In this document: positions 38,409-49,050 of the stretch, piece after piece | Layout of the letters: each line of letters starts with the position of its first letter | Numbering within the stretch: position 1 is the stretch's first letter | Origin: Octopus vulgaris | Taxonomy: Eukaryota | DNA: 64,000 bases | Assembly (NCBI GenBank): GCA_951406725.2 | Contig: OX597829.1 | Span: 30,256,001 to 30,320,000 of the forward strand | Reading direction: 5' to 3' | Translations under genes and position numbers: made by a program | Notes under the pieces: model-generated | Seen by the model: the letters and a program-made list of their open reading frames with translations, nothing else | What the model was told of the DNA's origin: nothing | The model's database searches: none

Positions 38409-39067
38409 ACTTATTTTGCACATCCCTTGCTCTTAGCAACAACATTAGACTTTGAAAAGAAAAGCAAGGATCTCATTTGCCACATGGTGAAGGACATTCC
38501 AATTATAGAATTGGGGAGGTCATTCAGACCATATTTTTCTTTTCTCTGATGAGAACTTACTGTGAACATTACTTACAGTGAACATTACTGCTGCCATCAT
38601 CAGTATTAACATCATTAACTTAAAGGCTATATTTTCTTTTTTGCTAAATGATTATCCAGAGATTGAAGACAAGTCTGATGACTATGTTGTTGTAGAAACA
38701 GTTACAAATCTAGCTTGCTCTTTGATTACAGAATCTATAGTTATATTTCTTGGCTTCGTCTTTTAGCTTTTTTAATCATTGCCTTCAATTGAATGCTAGA
38801 AATGTAGCCTTTAGCTTGATATCCTTTGGAATAGCGATTAATATGATTTTATTTTTAAATGAACACCAATATGACTTTACTTTCTTGATATGATGAAATA
38901 CAGTAATTTGATTAATAAATTACTTGCAACCAGTACATTCAACTCGTGTTTGTAAGTTGAGGTTGACAAAACATAACCCAGGAGTCAACATGTATGTCAC
39001 TGAAGATAATCAGACAAACTGATTGAAATAATGCTAGTGGCCAAGTTTAAAAATAGTATGAAAAAAA

Positions 39068-40023
39068 ATAGATCATGTTCAAAGAACAGCATAAACTGAT
39101 CTATCATAAACGCATATGTACACACAGCAACACCCATGCACTCACTCGTCACCTTGTTTCTCACCACCGAATCGAATCAGTGGCAGCCAACCAGTTCAAC
39201 ACCACTCCTTTGCACTCACTTAAATGTAAGTACACATGCACTACCACACACAAAGATACAACCCAACCCATCCCTGCCCCCCACCATTTTTATACTCTCG
39301 TGTCTTAAAAGCCACTTTCCCTATCTCTTTCCACTTCTGGTCACTTCAACTATGTAGCGCACATGTACTTGAACTTTTTCCCAACTCTTTTTTTCCATGT
39401 TATTCTGAGTTTCAAGCTAATACATTCCATGTGTATGTCCTTTTGACTTATGTTGTTTTGTTATTTGTATCTTTAATATTTGATTTTACTGATCCCCAAA
39501 GTACCCCGGATCCTGTTGCCCCCGTGCCGCTGGCACGTTAAAAGCTCGAACCGATCGTGACCGATGCCGGACCCCCCGGCCCCTGTGCAGGTGGCACGTA
39601 AAAGCACCCACTCCACTCACGGAGTGGTTGGCGTTAGGAAGGGCATCCAGCCGTAGAAACTCTGCCAGATCAGACTGGAGCCTGGAGCGGCCCCTGGCTT
39701 CCCAGACCCCGGTCGAACCGTCCAACCCGTGCTAGCGCGGAAAACGGACGTTAAACGATGATGATGATGATGATATATATATATATATAGATCATGTTCA
39801 AAGAACAGCATAAACTGATCTATCAGAAACGCATATGTACACACAGCAACACCCATGCACTCACTCGTCACCTTGTTTCTCACCACCGAATCGAATCAGT
39901 GGCAGCCAACCAGTTCAACACCACTCCTTTGCACTCACTTAAATGTAAGTACACATGCATTACCACACACAAAGATACAACCCAACCCATCCCTGCTCCC
40001 CACCATTTTTATACTCTCGTGTC
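39068..40023 (+). repeat. 237-bp direct repeat (39068-39304 and 39787-40023)
   Basis: Offset 719 bp; only about 3 substitutions visible between the copies. Confidence 0.95.
39305..39786 (+). mobile_element. Young RTE-type 3' UTR/tail copy A
   Basis: CpG-rich ggagtggttggcgttaggaagggcatccagccgtagaaac...cggacgttaaac(GAT)n(AT)n. Confidence 0.85.
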
Positions 40024-40441
40024 ACATAAGAAAACCATCCGAACGTGACCGTAGCCAGTACTGCATCGACTGGCCTCCGTGCTGTGGGCATGTAACAAAC
40101 ACCATCCGATCGTGGCCGTTCGCCAGCCTCATCTGGCACCTGTGTCGGTGGCACATAAAAAACACCATCCGAGCGTGGCCGTCTGGCACCTGTATCAGTG
40201 GCACAAAAAAAACACCATCCGAGCGTGGCCGTCTGCGAGCCTCGTCTGGCACCTGTGTCGGTGGCACATAAAATCACCCACTACACTCTCGGAGTGGTTA
40301 GCGTTAGGAAGGGCATCCAGCTGTAGAAACACTGCCAGATCTGACTGGCCTGGTGCAGCCTTCGGGCTTGCCAGAACCCAGTTGAACCGTCCAACCCATG
40401 CTAGCATGGAAAGCGGACGTTAAACGATGATGATGATGATA
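40024..40441 (+). mobile_element. Young RTE-type tail copy B with internal ~60-bp tandem modules
   Basis: About 4 repeats of caccatccgagcgtggccg...tgtgtcggtggcacataaaaa, then ttaggaagggcatccagctgtagaaac...ggacgttaaac(GAT)n. Confidence 0.85.
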
Positions 40442-40446
40442 TATAT

Positions 40447-40926
40447 AATTCTATATTTAAGAGATGAGGAATTATGTACATTATTTACATTTGACGGATA
40501 TTTGTCCTCATCTTGTTTGTTGTTAACATGGTTTGGCTGATATACCCTCCAGCCTTCATCAGGTGTCTTGGGGAAATTTCGAACCTGGGTTCTCATTCCT
40601 AAGGTAATTTTTTGATATTATTATTAAGGTCACTGCCTGGAATCAAACTCGGAATCTTGGGGTTTGTAGCCTGCGTTCTTAACCACTATGCCACAGCATA
40701 TGGCGTAGTGGTTAAGAATGCGGGCTACTAACCCCAAGATTCTGAGTTCAATTCGTGGCAGTAACCTGAATAATAATAATAATCATAATAATATTGAAAA
40801 ATACCTTAGGAATGAGAACCCAAGTTCGAAATTTTCCCAAGATACCTGATGAAGGCTGGAGGGTAAATCAGCCAAACCGTGTTAACAACAAACAAGATGA
40901 GGACAAATATCCGTCTAATGTTAATA

Positions 40927-40928
<2 letters not shown>
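40447..40928. mobile_element. Head-to-head inverted pair of tRNA-headed elements with hammerhead-like tails
   Basis: Arms 40480-40693 and 40701-40928 are reverse complements around a 7-nt spacer. Each arm has A-box TGGC(G/A)TAGTGG, a B-box-like GAGTT(C/T)(A/G)ATTC and a CTGATGA core. Confidence 0.85.

Positions 40929-40988
<60 letters not shown>
40928..40988. repeat. (AT)n(AC)n microsatellite
   Basis: Directly visible. Confidence 0.95.
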
Positions 40989-40989
<1 letters not shown>

Positions 40990-42641
40990 AAGTGATGGTT
41001 TGTTGCCAACTTACTGTGGGAGTCACAAGAAAGGGAAGAATGCTGCTATTTAGCTCCAAAGCAAATGTTGCTGTTAAGCTTGGGTTATGTTACTCATTTG
41101 TGAAAGTTTTATGTAAACATTGTTACATGTAAAACAGTTCAAATTGTGAATCTTTATCTCAATTTCTTTATTCCTGTCCTCTTTTTTGGTTTTCACTTTT
41201 TCTATGAAAAATAATTTGGCAATCAGTGTTTACATATTTACTTGTTGAAAATAATTCAATTGCAAGTTTAGTAGATTTGGTAACACAAGAAAAATTTCAA
41301 ATATCACAAGAACTCATTCTGTATCAATATTAAGATAGACATTCTAGCATGTTTGACATTTTTTTTTTTTTTTTAGTTTTATGTCCATTTTTTATTTTAA
41401 AAAGAATTAAAAAAAATTTTTTTTGCTTTATTTCTTGGATGAAAGCATTTGAAACTAGGATTCCACCTTGCTGTTTCCTCAACCATAAAGTAATAGTGCT
41501 TGTTTCAGTCATTAGGCAAATTTCAAAATTCATGTACTTTGCTGAGATGCACAGTGAAATTTCTGCTGTAAGGTTTGATCCCCTGACCTTGTGGTTAGTC
41601 CAACAACTAAAGAAGTATCCATTTGAATGATTTAAAGGTTAAATAGGTTTGGTGTCAATCAGTCAGTCAAACTGAAGCAAATAGAATTATGTCTTGTATT
41701 GAGGCAGAATACATTAAACGACCCTAGTGGCCAGTATTATAGCAATGTAGTTTCTTATCTATGAATTATTAATTTTCATTAAAAGAAGAAAAAGAAAAAG
41801 AACATAAGATTTTATTGTTGTAGAGGCATTTTCCCCTGTTCTTGCAAGTCACTTAACAGCCAGTGTACACTGTTAAGTGATTGGCATTAAGGAAAGGCAA
41901 CCAACCATAGAAACTATGCTAAAGCTGACACAGAGGTTCAGCACAGCTCTGTAGTTTGCTAAAACCTGTCAGACCAAATATCCCATACCAGTATAGAAAA
42001 CAGATATTAAAATGATGATGATGTTTTTTTCCAGATTATCATGTATTTGGTGTGTGTTACAATATATTACAATGCAACAATCTGATCAAGATCATCTTAA
42101 CATTTTATGTGTGCTCCAATCCTGTACATTCTAGTGTTAGGTTATCTCACCCCTGAAACCTAATATTTCCAGGTCTGACCCAATTATATCTTCTTTGGAT
42201 TTAAACTATTTGTAACTAGGTCAGCTTGAATGAATCCAACCTAGAGTTAATCAGTAATAATGATCGGCATCTTTTCCGTGATTTCATGGCACATTCATTA
42301 AGTATGCAACATCTATTTGCTTTATATGTCCACAACACTATATTGATCTTTTCAACATACCTCAAGCTAGGTTTTCAAATTACTTTTGTACAGTACTTCC
42401 TGTATATTAATACTGTACATTTAATAGATAATGCTTGGTTTGTTTCTCTATTTGCTATATCTGCATTCATTTATTCAGATTTTTACTGCCATAAAGAAAA
42501 TTAACCTTTTACTTATACATCATATATTCTGCTTTTGACTTGGTAAAAGCAGTTTACTAATTTCACCCATATTATTTTAAATCTAGGCTATATACTACAC
42601 CTAGCTCCACCTACAGTACTAATTCATAACTTAGCTCAGAT

Positions 42642-43520
42642 ATCATATAATGTCCATGTTCCATGCTGGCATAGGTTGGACAGTTTGACTGAAATTGATG
42701 TGTCCAAGGACTGCATTGAGCTCCTATGTCTGTTTTTGGTTGGATGCCCTTTCTAATGCCATTTTACATTATGGACTGGGTGCCTTTTTTGTAGAACCTG
42801 CACTATTGAAATCACAAAAGAAAAAAAAAGTAACCAGTGCCCCACAAGGTGGAAGTGGGTGGGTGGATGATTTGTGTGATTGTTTGGTAAGGTCATTGAG
42901 GAGAAGGCAGACTGCCAAAATAGGCAGGGTGGAAGGAGGGATGAGACGAGTTATGAGGTGAGGAAAATAAAAGGATGCAGAAGAGCATGGAGCAGTGAGT
43001 CACAGGAGCGATAAAGATGATACAGTTGTTGGTGGGATGGGGAAGGATAAGAGAGAAGGAGGGGGAACAGGTAGACATAGTGCATAAGAGGGGAAAGTCA
43101 CTATAACAGATGAAGGACCCAAAATGTAACACTTCCAGAACCCAGTCTTCCTAAAGAGGCTGAGTCTTTTTGAGAATCTCATATTGCCAGAGATCCTGGT
43201 CTTTGTCATCTCTTCAGTCAGGCTCAAGGTCTTGAGGTCAGCTTTCATTACTTCAGCCCCTATCTTCCTGAGTCTTTTGCTGGTTCCAGCAATGTTAAGT
43301 GAATGGCCTTTCCTTATACAGCTGTCCTCATTCATATGCATCACATGACCATATCATCTCAGTCTTCTTTCTTGAACACATCTGATTCTTCTTATACATA
43401 GTTTTTCATTCAGCGCCTTTGTACTAATTATTTCATGCACGCTCACATTGCACATGCAATGAAGTATGTTTGTGTCATTTCTTTTCAATCTCTAGTATTC
43501 TGCATTCAAAGTCCATGTTT
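42642..43520 (-). mobile_element. RTE LINE 3' end (ORF C-terminus, 3' UTR and tail)
   Basis: Minus strand EVMKADLKTLSLTEEMTKDQDLWQY resembles an RTE C-terminus. It is followed by a pyrimidine-rich UTR and the tail ...agggcatccaacc...ccagcatggaacatggacatta. Confidence 0.75.
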
Positions 43521-44677
43521 CAGATAATTTAATTTCTTTTGTTTATGACATTTTTTACCAGCTATTCTTGAGCATCTTGTCAACTTAAAATTCTGGTGTC
43601 CTGTCTGACTGCATAAAGTCTCACTGAACTTTTCAACATGTTATCTGTAACTTCTGCCTATTCTTTTACCATACTTCAGTAAAGGATTTGTGGGTCCTGT
43701 TAGTGATTTGGAAATCTAAGTAATGGTGTTGTAGCTATATGAAGATTGATAATACCGATATTAGATGTGGTCAGTTTTTGGATTAAATGTTTTTCTCTAT
43801 TTCTCTATATCACTTAAAAATGATTTGATAAGTTGACAGTTTTATATCATCATCATTTAATGTCCATATTCCATGTTGGTATAGCTTGGACAATGAGCTG
43901 GAGGACTGCATTGAACTCCAATGTCTGCTTTGGGGTTTCTGTGGCTTCCTAGCACTAACTATTTTACAGTGTACTGGATAGTTTCTTTGTGGCACTGGCT
44001 GCAGTTCGAGTGACCAGTAACTTGCAGGACAACCTCCCCCCCAAACTGAATGAGGTTATAGTAAATGAGGTGTAAATGCCTGTGATGATAGAGGGACAGG
44101 CACAAACGTCTTCCTATAGAGAGATTACATGATAATCTTTAGATGTTAATTATGAAATATTTACAAACTGGTATATATTTTTATGCTTAAATGCTATTTC
44201 TTTTTTTCAATAAATTATGAGGGAGCAGTCCCCATGATCTTTACCGGTACTTACAGATGAGATTGGTTTTGAGTTTGAATATTTGCAGGTGGATCATTGA
44301 GGGACAAACTGGGGCTGAAATGAGAAATTCCAGTGGGTTACAGTTTGGAAAGAAAGGATCCGAGGAATGTTTAGTGTAAGACACAGTAAGGTTGCTAAAT
44401 TGAAGAGAGAAGAGCACCTTAATTGGTCTTTGGTAATGGAGGTATCCTACCAGTCTGTTCAAAGGAGTAGAAGCTGTTAAAAGTAATTGAAAAAATAGAA
44501 ACAGAATGAAGCAGCAAGTCTTTGAGTTGTTGATTGTAGCATGTGAATATTTAGAGAATAACAGTGTGTATGTATATGAGTGTGTATGTACTATTTCCTA
44601 TATGTGAGTAGCTTATTGCATATGAAGTTGCAATTTTTCCTTTTGATATTGTATACCAGTCAGATACTGAAATTAAT

Positions 44678-44903
44678 TTAACCCATTAGCATTTAAATTG
44701 GCCATATCTGGTCCAAATATTCTACTTGTTTTATGTTCAAACTGGCCAGGTCCAACCTCTCGTACATAACCCATAATGTCATTCTAAAAATATACAATCA
44801 CATCACTGAAATCTCAAAGCTCTAAGATATTGCATGATTAATTGAAAGCAGTGTGAATGAATAAGCATTCCATTTGATAGCAACCTGAAGTCTGAAGGGT
44901 TAA
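44678..44903 (-). mobile_element. MITE family B, reverse orientation
   Basis: TTAAcccattagcatttaaa ... tctgaagggTTAA; interior is the reverse complement of family B. Confidence 0.8.
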
Positions 44904-46817
44904 TTGACCACCACCACCACCTTCAACTGCCTCAAATTTTCAGCCTTGCATCTGTGTTAGAAACAATTGTTACATTAATTGTACTCTATTATATACACAC
45001 ACATTCTCACACACATACACTTGACAAAATGTGAAGACTGATAACTAAACTTCAACATGAATCTATGAAACAGAACAGCCTGTAAGGCTCTTTATTAGAA
45101 TTCAACCATTTTTCTTAAATATAAAAGTGTGAATTAAGCAGTTGCTCCCTCCACATTATTTATGTTTAAAAAAAAAGAAGGGATATTTAGATTGAAAGGT
45201 TAAAAATATCTATTTATGTAGTATTAAGTATCTTCAAAGTATTTTCATACTGAGTTTATTGTTGCTCATTTGTAATTGTTCAAGTTCAATAGTTCACTTG
45301 TCTTATGTTTTGTGCATGTTTACCTTACATATAAGATGTAGATTTAATAGGTCACATTTAGATGTATAGTTTTGTGATTTTTCATACTAGAGTTCTTGTG
45401 TCTTTGTTTAACAGCAATTTAGGATTTAAGTAAAAGCTTAGTTATGTTGTGCTATTCTTACAGCTAGCCTTATAATGTCATATGGTATTAGTCTGAAACA
45501 ATGCTGCCTTTCATTGATTACAGTAGAACATTGATCTCTAATCTACAGACTACTTCAGCATTATTGAAATATGTCCACCAATTATTACCTGGGATTCAAG
45601 TTGTATTTGAAAATAGTGTCAAGATCATTGCCTGACCAATCCTCAACTTTGTTTTTGCAAATGTCATTGCAAATGTTAATATTTATAAATTGGAGAAGTG
45701 TTCTATTCAAGCAGATTGTTAGATAATTTGTGTAGTACACTGTCTTTAATTCAGAGGATATTCCAAAATTTTAAGGCTTTTATCATTTTGATTTAATTTT
45801 GCATGACAAAATGCCAAAATTCAAAATCCATTGCCGGTGGTTTAAGGTAAAATAATTAATTTTATTTATTTATTTTTTTGCTAGATTGTCATGCAGAAAA
45901 ATAAGAATTGATCTTGTATCTAAATATGAATCTGGATAAACTGTACTTTGAATTACTTTGCGTTTTGTTTGTTTTATGTTTACAGAAACATTTAAAATAT
46001 AATTTTCAATTTTTCAATATTTATGGAATTTAAAAAAAAAAAAATTCAGTGTTATATTTTTGCTAAATCTTGACTTTTTAAACAATGTCTAAACAAGAAA
46101 AAAAAAAATGTTCAGATGTAGTTTCACATGATTTTTTTTTAATGTTACATACAATCTTCTTTTTACTCTGTCTAAATCACCAGACCTTTCACTTACATCT
46201 TTGCTAAGATGTGATTTGGTTGTAATTGTGAATTGGAACAATGTTTTTCTGAGAGCAGTTGTATAGTTTCAAGTAGACAAATTTTGGGAAGGAAGAACTG
46301 GTAATTTCAATTGTTGGAATGAGAAATATATAATGTATTTTCATTATGCTAATGATTCAATACTTATGAGAAGGTCTTCACCACTGTTACTATTATTAAC
46401 ACAATATATATACTACAGTTTCAATATCTAAACATTTGAAAATGTTTAGATATTGAAACCATAATAAGTATCTTCTATTTTAAAAGGAATATAGGTATCT
46501 GAAGCCAGATATGAATGCAAACTGGCTGTTTACTTTGATAATGGTGAAGGTAAAAAGAAGTTGAACTCAATGGTTAGGGTGCTTTTTCAGTGAAACTGTA
46601 TAAATATTTAACAGGAATACTGAAACAGATTTAAACAGTAACCATTTTACATAGGCCTGACAAACCAATGATGATTTACTATGTAGAGATACAAATCTCA
46701 ATAATCCATTTTATCATTATAAAAGATTTGGTTCAAAATAGCCTAAACAAGCAGAATGGTTATGTCTGGAATACTAAACTATGCAGACCAGATAAAATTA
46801 TTTTTAAGAATACCATC

Positions 46818-46866
46818 CATATGGTGTAGTGGTTAAGAGTGCAAGCTACTAACCCCAAGATTCTGA
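46818..46866 (+). mobile_element. Truncated copy of the tRNA-like head seen in the 40447-40928 element
   Basis: catatggtgtagtggttaagagtgcaagctactaaccccaagattctga is nearly identical to 40697-40745. Confidence 0.75.
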
Positions 46867-47259
46867 CCATCCACTTTGTGATCTATAATTGACCCTTTAT
46901 AAGACCTGTGTAAGCTTCACTAATGTGATTATATAATTGATTCTGACCCATGTATATCTATTATCACAAACTCTAGTCCACTAGCTGGCAGTGTTCTCTA
47001 TGTAAGCTTTCTTGTTCTTTTATCAACTGTCATTGAAATACTATTGTATTCTTTCTCCTGTTTTTTTTTTAGTAAACCACAATGCATGTTTGTTTATAGA
47101 CTTTGGACATAACCAAACTAATCTTTCTTTTCCTCCTGGAACTATTTTCCATTCATCACATTTCTTTGTAGTAAATATCAAGTTCGGATTTTTATTGGCT
47201 ATTCGTCATTCTTTCACCTCCATTTGCTAATCTAAGAAAAGTTCAATAATAATAATTGC

Positions 47260-47473
47260 ATTTGGTTTAGGCATAAGGCCAACAGTTTTGGGGGAGGGTG
47301 TTAGTTTATACCATTGACTCCAGTATTTGATTGTACTTTATTTTAATGACCCTAAAAAAATGGAAAGGAAAAAGTTTCCTTTGGCAGGATTTGAGTTCAA
47401 AATTTTAATGTGAAATGTAAAACTGGAAGAAATGATGCTAAATATTTTGTCTGGTGTGCTAATGATTCTGCCT
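47260..47473 (-). mobile_element. Decayed copy of the 25188-type SINE
   Basis: cattgactccagtatttgattgtactttattttaatgaccc...ggcaggatttgagttc...tgctaatgattctgcc. Confidence 0.7.
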
Positions 47474-48289
47474 TAAAAAATTATATTACTTAGATTTTCT
47501 CTATATTAACAGCTTTTTCTTGACATTTATGTTGTACCATGATATTGTTTAGAAATTGAAGTAGAAAATATTGATTTAACAAAAGGATAAATTGATAAGA
47601 AATTAAGTGGATATTTAATTTATGTGTAAAAAGTACAAGAACATGTGTAGTCAGTCATTCATCATTCATAATGTAGGTTTCTTTTTTATTAAATCTGTAT
47701 TTATGTTGTTAGATCAATTACTCTTTAAAGCTGCACTGTTTTGCCTATGCTACCAGAGACTGATTTGGATGTCATTAGGATGATGTGGTGGTTTTATAAT
47801 TTCAACTTTTCTTAGTCTTGAATCAGAGTTCATTATCTGTGTTGATATTTCCGATTACAGTTAATGTCTGTTCAGTGTGCATGATCTCATTATTTGTATA
47901 GTTTTTTCAGTTACCATGGTATTAATCACAATCAAGGCTAAAGAAGAGAATAGAGAGACGGGTTATAGGCTGTGAGACTCCGCTATGCTGTAGAGTTTTG
48001 AACCATGTTGTGTTTGGTGTCAGCCCATCACCTTCTGATTACCTTCCTTTTTCTCATGCTGTTGGTGATCATAACCCTCTCACTAATACACAAACAAAAT
48101 TAACTTAATTCAAATAAATCCTTTCTGTTGAAAAGTTGTGTAGAGCAGAGGTTGATCCACTGGCCAGATTTTACTTGATTAATACAATAAATTCATTTTT
48201 GAGGTAATTGTAAATATATTACTATTGGTTAGAAAAAGATGATCATGATTTTTTCCTAAACAGACTGACTCTTTGTTCCTGTTTGGTTA

Positions 48290-49050
48290 TCTAAACAACA
48301 AAATTAACCATCAACTCCAGATTTTTACTACCCATAGTCACTTCTTAAAGTTTGGGAAGAATACTAAAAATATTTATATTTGAACTTAAGTTTTGAGGTT
48401 TAGCCTGCCATGCACATCAGCACATTGCTTTCTTACCTATTGTATGTTGTGATTTGAGATATGATTACTCTACCATCATGACAAACACCATGTAGCCATG
48501 TTACCAAAACCTTTCCTTTCCGAATTTGTCTTGAACTTAAGACTTTTTTATAAAGATCATTCTTCTCTATGAAGAATCAGTTTAGTAGTGCTTTCGACCA
48601 TTCTTGTGAGGTCATCAGTACAGAGCAGCTTTCAAGGACATTTAAAATTGGATCTTTACAATGATGCAAAGTTGGTGGCTTAACATAGACTATTGGTACA
48701 CACCTTGCTTAGCATCAAAATGAAAGTTAAACATGTTTGCACAGTTACAAGACCTACATATACTACACCTGAGCTTTCCTTCATTCATCAGAGTACACCT
48801 TGGTGCACTTGATCAACTACCTTCTGAAGGTCAATTAAGGCCAGGTACTAACTAGTTCCATTTACCAAAGTTATTGTCAGTCGTATCATACAGCCAACAT
48901 ATTTCATAGCTAACATAAGTTCAGGTGCCACTTTCTACCTCACTAGTCCTACTTTGTATCTTGTCTCTGAAACAGATTTTTGATTAGCATAGACAGAAGA
49001 GTTGTAAGATATCTTGCTGTTATTGGTAACCTGCTCTTAAAAATCTTAAA
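48290..49050 (-). mobile_element. RTE-clade LINE reverse transcriptase remnant
   Basis: Minus strand: QVHQGVL (GVHQGS motif) near 48795-48815 and CP*KLLCTDDL (CPWELLYADDL motif) near 48605-48642. Confidence 0.7.

Follow-up and report, generated by a model that had tools for sequence, protein, structure and literature searches.

A window of 64,000 nucleotides from Octopus vulgaris (contig OX597829.1, positions 30,256,001 to 30,320,000; all window coordinates are counted from its first letter) contains a palindrome in which each arm joins a tRNA-like head to a hammerhead-like core. The initial annotation, made from the letters alone, read it as a non-autonomous, Pol III-driven retroelement that had borrowed a Penelope end. 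The question raised by the locus is what kind of element leaves such a structure, and how its two arms came to lie head to head. We consider it likely that the palindrome represents two solo pLTRs of an autonomous Penelope/Poseidon-type element, probably placed there by one insertion, and that the tRNA-like head probably marks the start of the element RNA. The mode of transcription of Penelope-like elements (PLEs) and the origin of their tandem and inverted structures are still largely open, and the octopus family constitutes a large, clean sample.

Structure of the palindrome

The 7-nt spacer at 40694-40700 is flanked by inverted arm segments at 40473-40611/40797-40935 (93%) and 40616-40693/40701-40778 (86%), and the identity between the arms is 84.6% over 228 nt. 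CTGATGA is found at 40846-52 on the forward strand and at 40562-56 on the reverse strand, in each case with A-GGCTG-10 nt-CAGCC-AAAC directly 3′. The arms, the spacer and both cores lie where they were first placed. The head-to-head arrangement is also as first described, but the arms are unequal, since a 30-nt tail is present on the left arm only and the right arm ends without one at about 40928 (Table 1).

Neither of the two hammerheads is intact. In left and right arm alike, G12 and A15 are changed and, by comparison with the family consensus, the GTT triplet that precedes the predicted cleavage site is gone. The GAAA motif is damaged in the same way in both arms, as had been observed; the damage reads, however, as G>A plus A>C together with the missing GTT and not as the lack of a G. 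The prediction that this copy is inactive is borne out by these changes. The exact core lesion occurs only three times in the genome, two of these being the window arms and the third L275 (G000:C16:28963400-28965400), itself a head-to-head pair, which lies 1.3 Mb from the palindrome on the same contig, has unrelated flanks and is not a duplicate of the window locus. Both window arms have four derived changes in common and, given these, they likely come from one source or have undergone gene conversion, as the shared lesion had suggested at the outset. The window copy almost certainly consists of two dead solo pLTRs of a Penelope/Poseidon-type element, placed head to head.

Table 1. Features of the palindrome and of the related head fragment in the window
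Feature	Position	Strand	Basis
Left arm: solo pLTR with long (tailed) 3′ end	40449..40695	-	Alignment to family consensus
30-nt Penelope-type tail, left arm only	40449..40477	-	Bimodal 3′ ends; one-arm-only rule in 63/68 pairs
Left type I hammerhead of minimal form, broken by changes in GAAA and loss of GTT; doubles as coding sequence for part of the ORF N-terminus	40525..40567	-	Consensus comparison
First ATG of the 835-aa consensus ORF, left arm	40594..40596	-	Consensus ORF
Left tRNA-Arg-like head; A box 40693-40683; B box 40648-40639, one CpG change	40627..40695	-	Comparison with host tRNAs and consensus
Head-to-head junction: remnants of quasi-palindromic leader and first head bases	40694..40700	.	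Inverted-repeat and consensus alignment
Right arm: solo pLTR, 3′ end short (no tail) and continued by a (TA)n tract	40696..40928	+	Alignment to family consensus
Right tRNA-Arg-like head; A box 40701-40711; B box 40746-40755, two changes	40696..40767	+	Comparison with host tRNAs and consensus
(AAT)n linker, length variable	40770..40795	+	Sequence, family alignment
First ATG of the consensus ORF, right arm	40812..40814	+	Consensus ORF
Right minimal type I hammerhead, same breaks as left	40841..40883	+	Consensus comparison
Separate head-only fragment (+4 to about +50), no linker or hammerhead, between two CCATCCA direct repeats (46811-46873)	46818..46866	+	92% identity over 49 nt

The insertion site is a (TA)n tract at the end of another repeat, because of which the target-site duplication of this pair is unreadable. 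The host repeat occurs in two copies within 39057-40440, about 670-720 nt apart; it contains tandem units of 50-67 nt and finishes in a (GAT)n tail, and the palindrome is located at that of the second copy.

ARAGORN called no tRNA in the window, and with a relaxed threshold on the head gave only a mis-folded call. Rfam returned no hammerhead or tRNA match, either in 39500-48000 (at E<=10) or in five loci, and a PDB sequence search yielded 0 matches. Since there is no library match, the identification of the tRNA-like and hammerhead parts rests on direct comparison. The source of the Rfam miRNA matches is palindromes and (TA)n.

Two other structures in the window were noted in passing. A hammerhead-like string at 48590-48625 on the reverse strand contains CTGATGA, an overlapping GACC/GGTC hairpin and GAAA in a non-canonical register and is unrelated to the palindrome family. 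A small AT-rich palindrome with 40-nt arms (80% complementary) lies at 46398-46479.

Size of the family and its hammerhead

One arm was used to query the genome (2.80 Gb, 227 contigs), which gave at least 5009 candidate copies, 40 of them scored. An exact 32-mer across the intact core has 2788 genome matches, compared with 0 for the reversed control. From these two results the unit is not a chance arrangement, and the dispersal first proposed from the head fragment at 46818 is confirmed. Non-CpG divergence among the copies is about 4%; combined with 22-mer counts this puts the estimated numbers at roughly 20,000 for tail-bearing arms, 9,000 for heads and 2,000 for ORF ends. The unit is present in sequencing runs under five organism labels, and contigs from four of these cover head, hammerhead and ORF.

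The majority sequence of 31 aligned copies is GACAC-CTGATGA-A-GGCTG-10 nt-CAGCC-GAAAC-GTT-GTGTT, which is an intact minimal hammerhead by the definition given in PMC4209133, with five possible stem I pairs. The motif that had been recognized in damaged form in the window is present whole in the family, including the GAAA behind CAGCC and the capacity for stem I pairing. Minimum free energy folding of the consensus monomer did not recover the hammerhead fold.

Both core motifs and GTT are retained in 78 of the 187 arms that cover the core, in a sample biased by its anchors. The form without GTT, predicted to be uncleavable, accounts for 37 of 188 typed arms (likewise a biased sample) and results from an in-frame loss of 3 nt, for instance at window positions 40878 and 40530. 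The loss was considered as a scar of reverse transcriptase (RT) jumping across cleaved RNA; the GTT-less arms (8/26) are scattered in a poorly resolved ORF tree. When GTT state was compared with ORF sites, one site leaned towards linkage (p 0.0009 of 134 tests). The deletion is also in frame, and it may mark a subfamily or be a recurrent event such as an RT jump.

The autonomous element and its pLTR

At four loci the common upstream flank, when translated, yields the final part of an RT and endonuclease ORF. A search with the end of this ORF located the head after the stop codon in 29 of 30 loci (L101-L104 being near-identical duplicates), while the thirtieth keeps only the first bases; the interval from stop to head consists of a 23-nt spacer and a 6-nt leader. 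In a search with the start of the ORF, the unit directly preceded it in 20 of 30 loci, and 90 exact tail-to-ORF junctions were counted. The link to Penelope, at first drawn from the hammerhead and the inverted arms, is upheld by this position of the unit as a pLTR adjoining an RT and GIY-YIG ORF.

The element cycle of 2664 nt comprises, in order, the leader, the tRNA-Arg-like head, (AAT)n, the ATG, the hammerhead, the short end, the 30-nt tail, the RT and GIY-YIG ORF, the stop codon, the 23-nt spacer and the next leader. The consensus ORF is 835 aa long; its ATG lies inside the pLTR, 19 nt behind the (AAT)n linker, and the frame passes through hammerhead and tail. The peptide encoded by the hammerhead (TPDEG...PKRCV) aligns with two relatives that are 57-58% identical; the stretch is absent from a 72% relative as annotated. 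The relatives P0001 and P0166 are 65-75% identical. A natural piece of 569 aa has an RVT_1 match with an E value of 2.7e-6, just under the curated cut-off, and 2923 homologues. The 123-aa C-terminal piece has no match to Pfam GIY-YIG, and the putative endonuclease is read from its motifs and from homologues, some of which are annotated PF01541.

The Poseidon element of Anolis carolinensis likewise has a single ORF with RT and C-terminal GIY-YIG domains that starts in the pLTR and overlaps the hammerhead, and two 3′ ends about 30 nt apart (PMC11167929, in the parts available). In that element the ORF is described as beginning at hammerhead stem II, and reverse transcription as starting inside the RNA at the sites that bound the tail (PMC11167929). 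The short octopus unit is taken as a pLTR because its layout matches that of the Anolis element. Judged by this layout, the "SINE-like" unit is the pLTR of an autonomous element of Penelope/Poseidon type that resides in the octopus genome itself. The initial reading was right in assigning a tRNA-like head and a Penelope end to one unit; it does not stand as regards a separate SINE with a borrowed tail, since the head belongs to the pLTR of the autonomous element, 29 nt past the stop codon and about 125 nt before the start codon.

A young GIY-YIG family of 781 aa was rejected as the partner, its 3′ end sharing only words of 14-15 nt with the unit. It is a separate PLE (L081-L090, e.g. G000:C16:33682200-33687200), Neptune-like, with many intact RT and GIY-YIG frames and a Cys linker between RT and endonuclease, unlike the 835-aa consensus, which has none. 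Lack of a Zn-finger-like linker at this place is one mark of the Penelope/Poseidon clade and RT phylogeny the other; membership of the 835-aa element in the clade is probable. At its 3′ end the 781-aa family carries a minimal hammerhead whose core shows the U3-A8 variant known from PMC4209133. At L069:2700-3170, behind a Neptune-like copy, two arms of about 230 nt form an almost perfect inverted repeat; each arm contains CTGATGA, and the repeat is unrelated to the palindrome family. In the P0006 cluster, named members about 53% identical are from the barnacle Amphibalanus amphitrite, and most other animal matches are at 37-45%; the barnacle similarity could reflect horizontal transfer in the clade.

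Formation of head-to-head pairs

The expectation that inverted dimers would be frequent proved correct. A head-to-head pair was found in 77 of 171 loci (29/70 of the head-anchored and 17/30 of the core-anchored loci), and copies are mostly solo or head to head, with direct neighbours only occasional (e.g. L042, L046). The 3′ ends of 252 distinct arms are bimodal, 117 being short, 108 long and 27 other. Apart from nine pairs unclassed for tail state, the 30-nt tail is on one arm in 63 of the 68 classifiable pairs, on neither in 4 and on both in 1 (p 4e-14). Target duplications of at least 11 nt (11-17 nt) accompany 37 of 68 pairs, compared with 3 of 600 shuffled, mismatched flank pairs. The geometry of the pairs is the same for arms of up to 2 kb.

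The GTT state over 45 pairs was long/long in 28, mixed in 13 and short/short in 4. These are near independent draws, so the arms often come from different templates or the deletion arises per arm. Arms within a pair share derived changes about four times as often as random arms (35/5970 sites versus 0.0014 per site; 55 comparisons, some loci counted twice).

The insertion signatures and the 3′ part are of PLE type and not those of a SINE mobilised by a LINE; an inverted copy and a one-ended tail are given as PLE hallmarks by Craig et al. (PMC8557442). We propose that the RT-endonuclease would cut both strands at an AT-rich site, and that each DNA end would prime reverse transcription inside the element RNA shortly past the hammerhead, the short start site serving one end and the tailed site the other. 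Each cDNA would reach the 5′ end of the RNA or stop early, and a head-to-head joining of the two would follow. The 280-nt SINE-like unit would arise from initiation at the 5′ pLTR of an RNA that carries the ORF. For Anolis Poseidon, cutting and extension of both strands have been described in vitro (PMC11167929); in the octopus family the counterpart is the head-to-head pairs, seen from sequence. Paired insertions with one tailed and one tail-less end, duplications of 11-17 nt and often different templates fit this two-strand cutting and extension from two internal start sites (PMC11167929).

That the palindrome is a MITE, or a fold-back copy of one cDNA, is highly improbable: the changes common to the window arms and the fourfold sharing within pairs would suit such an origin, but the outer ends are fixed at two sites while the inner ends vary, the tail is one-armed, GTT differs between the arms in 13/45 pairs, and the geometry holds up to 2-kb arms. 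This origin is disfavoured for the family, though single loci such as this one could have it.

The tRNA-like head and the 5′ edge

Of 30 host tRNA genes, representing six amino acids only, tRNA-Arg(TCG) resembles the consensus head most (49 identities over 74 nt, z 7.2), followed by tRNA-Arg(TCT). The A and B boxes of the consensus head are canonical. A cloverleaf was not recovered for the head, and the acceptor stem is mismatched. Divergence among the copies is 4.2% in the A box, 3.2% in the B box and 3.3% in the middle of the head; the boxes are no better conserved than the middle, as would be expected of dead copies, and this lends no support to Pol III.

The head coincides with a sharp edge. 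Exact 22-mers occur 802 times in the ORF (at about -150), 831 times in the spacer (-28..-7), 3604 times in the head (+29..+50) and 8215 times behind the AAT linker, the copy number being flat upstream and then rising in a 4.3-fold step at the head. The starts of 71 head-anchored arms (from the first 70 of the 3604 places, all on contig 1, with two pairs that look duplicated) fall at -7..+4 in 39 cases, at +6..+23 in 18, at -20..-62 in 3 and beyond -96 in 11; at finer scale, 19 lie at -2..+4 and 20 at -4..-7. A start at -6 places the A box at +14, the usual spacing in SINEs. Only 8 of the 90 copies with a tail-to-ORF junction reach the head, where 5 end at -8..+4 and 3 at +30..+32, with none beyond. 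Three of the 30 ORF-start loci (L256, L268, L272) continue through the head into the upstream ORF end, which means that not every template started at the head. The interval from -18 to +10 is taken up by a hairpin, and in about 7 of 29 ORF-linked copies it is altered or has lost bases; for these reasons the pile-up of 5′ ends could be structure-induced. Short inverted stubs of the head are found at many 5′ junctions.

Transcription of the element

The sense strand of the consensus is free of TTTT over the whole 2.66-kb cycle, and among the copies no position has TTTT in more than 8%. The deficit has a p value of 0.012-0.032 under null models, and other nulls give 0.005-0.23, with the weakest result under Markov models trained on the element itself. 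In single decayed copies there are 0.44 TTTT runs per kb, compared with 3.0 in other PLE copies of the same genome with equal T content (27 and 14 stretches). Among related elements from metagenome contigs, TTTT is missing from 1 of 61 coding stretches of at least 1.4 kb and from 0 of 32 stretches that extend through the 3′ UTR to the hammerhead; no pair of A and B boxes was seen among 79 relative loci. One relative without a tRNA head (L280) nevertheless has a TTTT-free coding stretch of 2 kb, and runs of G are likewise absent from the consensus as well as from 18 of 61 controls. As a sign of Pol III transcription, the absence of TTTT appears suggestive, not decisive.

Raw RNA-seq reads (three runs of one study under another species label, about 6% per read set) cover the two strands at equal depth, and the depth tracks copy number. 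The same three runs contain no pile-up of molecule starts or ends, but since their strandedness and size selection are unrecorded this has no bearing on Pol III or cleavage.

We lean towards the view that the A and B boxes of the head are a captured Pol III promoter which would set the 5′ end of the RNA. A bolder possibility, which we put forward tentatively, is that the whole coding PLE would be transcribed end to end by Pol III from a captured tRNA promoter in the pLTR, with TTTT lost over the 2.66-kb cycle, so that one RNA would be the mRNA that encodes the 835-aa RT-endonuclease and also the template from which the thousands of SINE-looking solo pLTRs are copied. Pol III RNAs are uncapped, and translation would need another route. 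If Pol III does make the full RNA, this would be a natural long Pol III-made mRNA in a retrotransposon, and because the consensus ORF is intact the idea is directly testable.

The alternative that survives best, although we find it somewhat unlikely, is that the head is a passive passenger, a tRNA SINE that once inserted in the pLTR. The element would be transcribed by Pol II from tandem or flanking promoters, and the hairpin or self-complementary leader would stall RT or make it snap back. This would be in line with the hairpin and its local deletions in ORF-linked copies, with the inverted head stubs and with the existence of read-through copies, as well as with the characterised Penelope promoter, which is internal and TATA-less with a downstream promoter element (PMC2377424). 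It requires, however, that about 74% (39/53) of RT passes terminate within the same 11 nt, beyond the tRNA fold. Moreover, the stubs copy the head and not the upstream template, which suits a template end, and the absence of TTTT over 2.66 kb is left unexplained. Cleavage of a long Pol II transcript by RNase P at the tRNA-like fold is very doubtful as the origin of the 5′ end, for although the 19 of 71 arms starting at -2..+4 lie near a mature tRNA 5′ end, the 20 at -4..-7 start upstream of the expected cut, and the acceptor stem and cloverleaf are as deficient as described above.

Is there a separate SINE lineage?

It may also be asked whether the short units form a true SINE lineage that amplifies independently, with Pol III transcripts of its own moved in trans by the Penelope protein. 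We judge this unlikely. Head-starting units do outnumber ORF-linked ones by about 3:1, the A and B boxes are present with no internal TTTT, and 13 of 71 heads (L131-L200) have no hammerhead tail, most of these ending in (AAT)n like a simple SINE. These tail-less heads may show what the donor of the head looked like, or may be copies that broke at the microsatellite. Against a lineage of its own, comparison of 74 head-starting with 40 ORF-linked arms revealed no distinguishing variant (71 tests, best p 0.011, in a small sample), and for this reason an independent non-autonomous lineage lacks support. The main recurrent indels of the coding part (3 and 9 nt) are in frame. The template of Anolis Poseidon needs the first 172 nt of the ORF (PMC11167929), whereas the solo units stop at about ORF nt 120-155. 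Finally, some short units carry extra ORF sequence behind the tail, from which it follows that ORF-bearing templates exist. The tRNA head blurs the border between SINEs and autonomous elements, and a pipeline could call the terminal repeat of a coding element a tRNA SINE.

Comparison with known elements

The 5′ part of the octopus pLTR, a tRNA-like head with A and B boxes followed by the (AAT)n linker, differs from that described for Anolis Poseidon, as do the sharp 5′ end of the copies and their TTTT-free sense strand (PMC11167929, in the parts available). The hammerhead resembles the minimal ones reported from metazoan PLEs in its CUGAUGA, extra base before stem II, GAAA, 2-bp palindromic stem III and 5-bp stem I; there, too, most motifs are single and dispersed, with some opposite-strand pairs 100-700 bp apart (PMC4209133). 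By a symmetric reading, stem II has 5 bp in the octopus hammerhead, unlike the set described in the available part of PMC4209133, and the octopus family also has the GTT-less variant; the intact form is predicted to cleave after GUU, the GTT-less form not at all.

By the SINEBase definition (PMC3531059), the unit is like tRNA-derived SINEs in being short and dispersed, with a tRNA-Arg-like head bearing A and B boxes and a 3′ part in common with an autonomous retroelement. In contrast to SINEs as defined in that source, the partner is a PLE and not a LINE, the head lies inside the autonomous element, and no independent subfamily was seen.

Three octopus families, OK, OR1 and OR2, were reportedly described as tRNA-derived SINEs by Ohshima and Okada in 1994. 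OR2 carries the CORE label (PMC4758252). The unit may conceivably be identical with OK, OR1 or OR2.

SMalpha of Schistosoma has been linked to Pol III. Like the octopus unit, it is SINE-like and has a type I hammerhead; the available text of PMC8490949 names no autonomous PLE as containing it, whereas the octopus unit is placed as a PLE pLTR. In the TRIMp3 elements Cassandra, Helenus and Ajax, a putative Pol III promoter derived from a small RNA is likewise located in the terminal repeat of a retrotransposon, but these are non-autonomous LTR elements of up to 1.3 kb, compared with a PLE with an 835-aa ORF (PMC10886601). Non-LTR retrozymes (bioRxiv 10.64898/2026.07.22.740005) and non-autonomous PLEs such as MRC1 (PMC8557442) are similar in being short, non-coding, pLTR-related units spread by PLE machinery. 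The retrozymes are described as head-to-tail tandems, unlike the octopus copies with their solo and head-to-head arrangement, and the word tRNA is absent from the main text of that preprint (bioRxiv 10.64898/2026.07.22.740005).

Full-text searches of openly accessible literature found, among the papers listed, neither a PLE with a tRNA-derived head nor a tRNA SINE mobilised by a PLE. A tRNA-Arg-like head with A and B boxes at the 5′ edge of a pLTR has no parallel among these papers, and a borrowed Pol III promoter at that place would be new for the PLE class. A repeat library table for Octopus vulgaris includes 190 Penelope-like families, and the element may already have an entry in that library (PMC13282606, in the part available), in Repbase or in Dfam.
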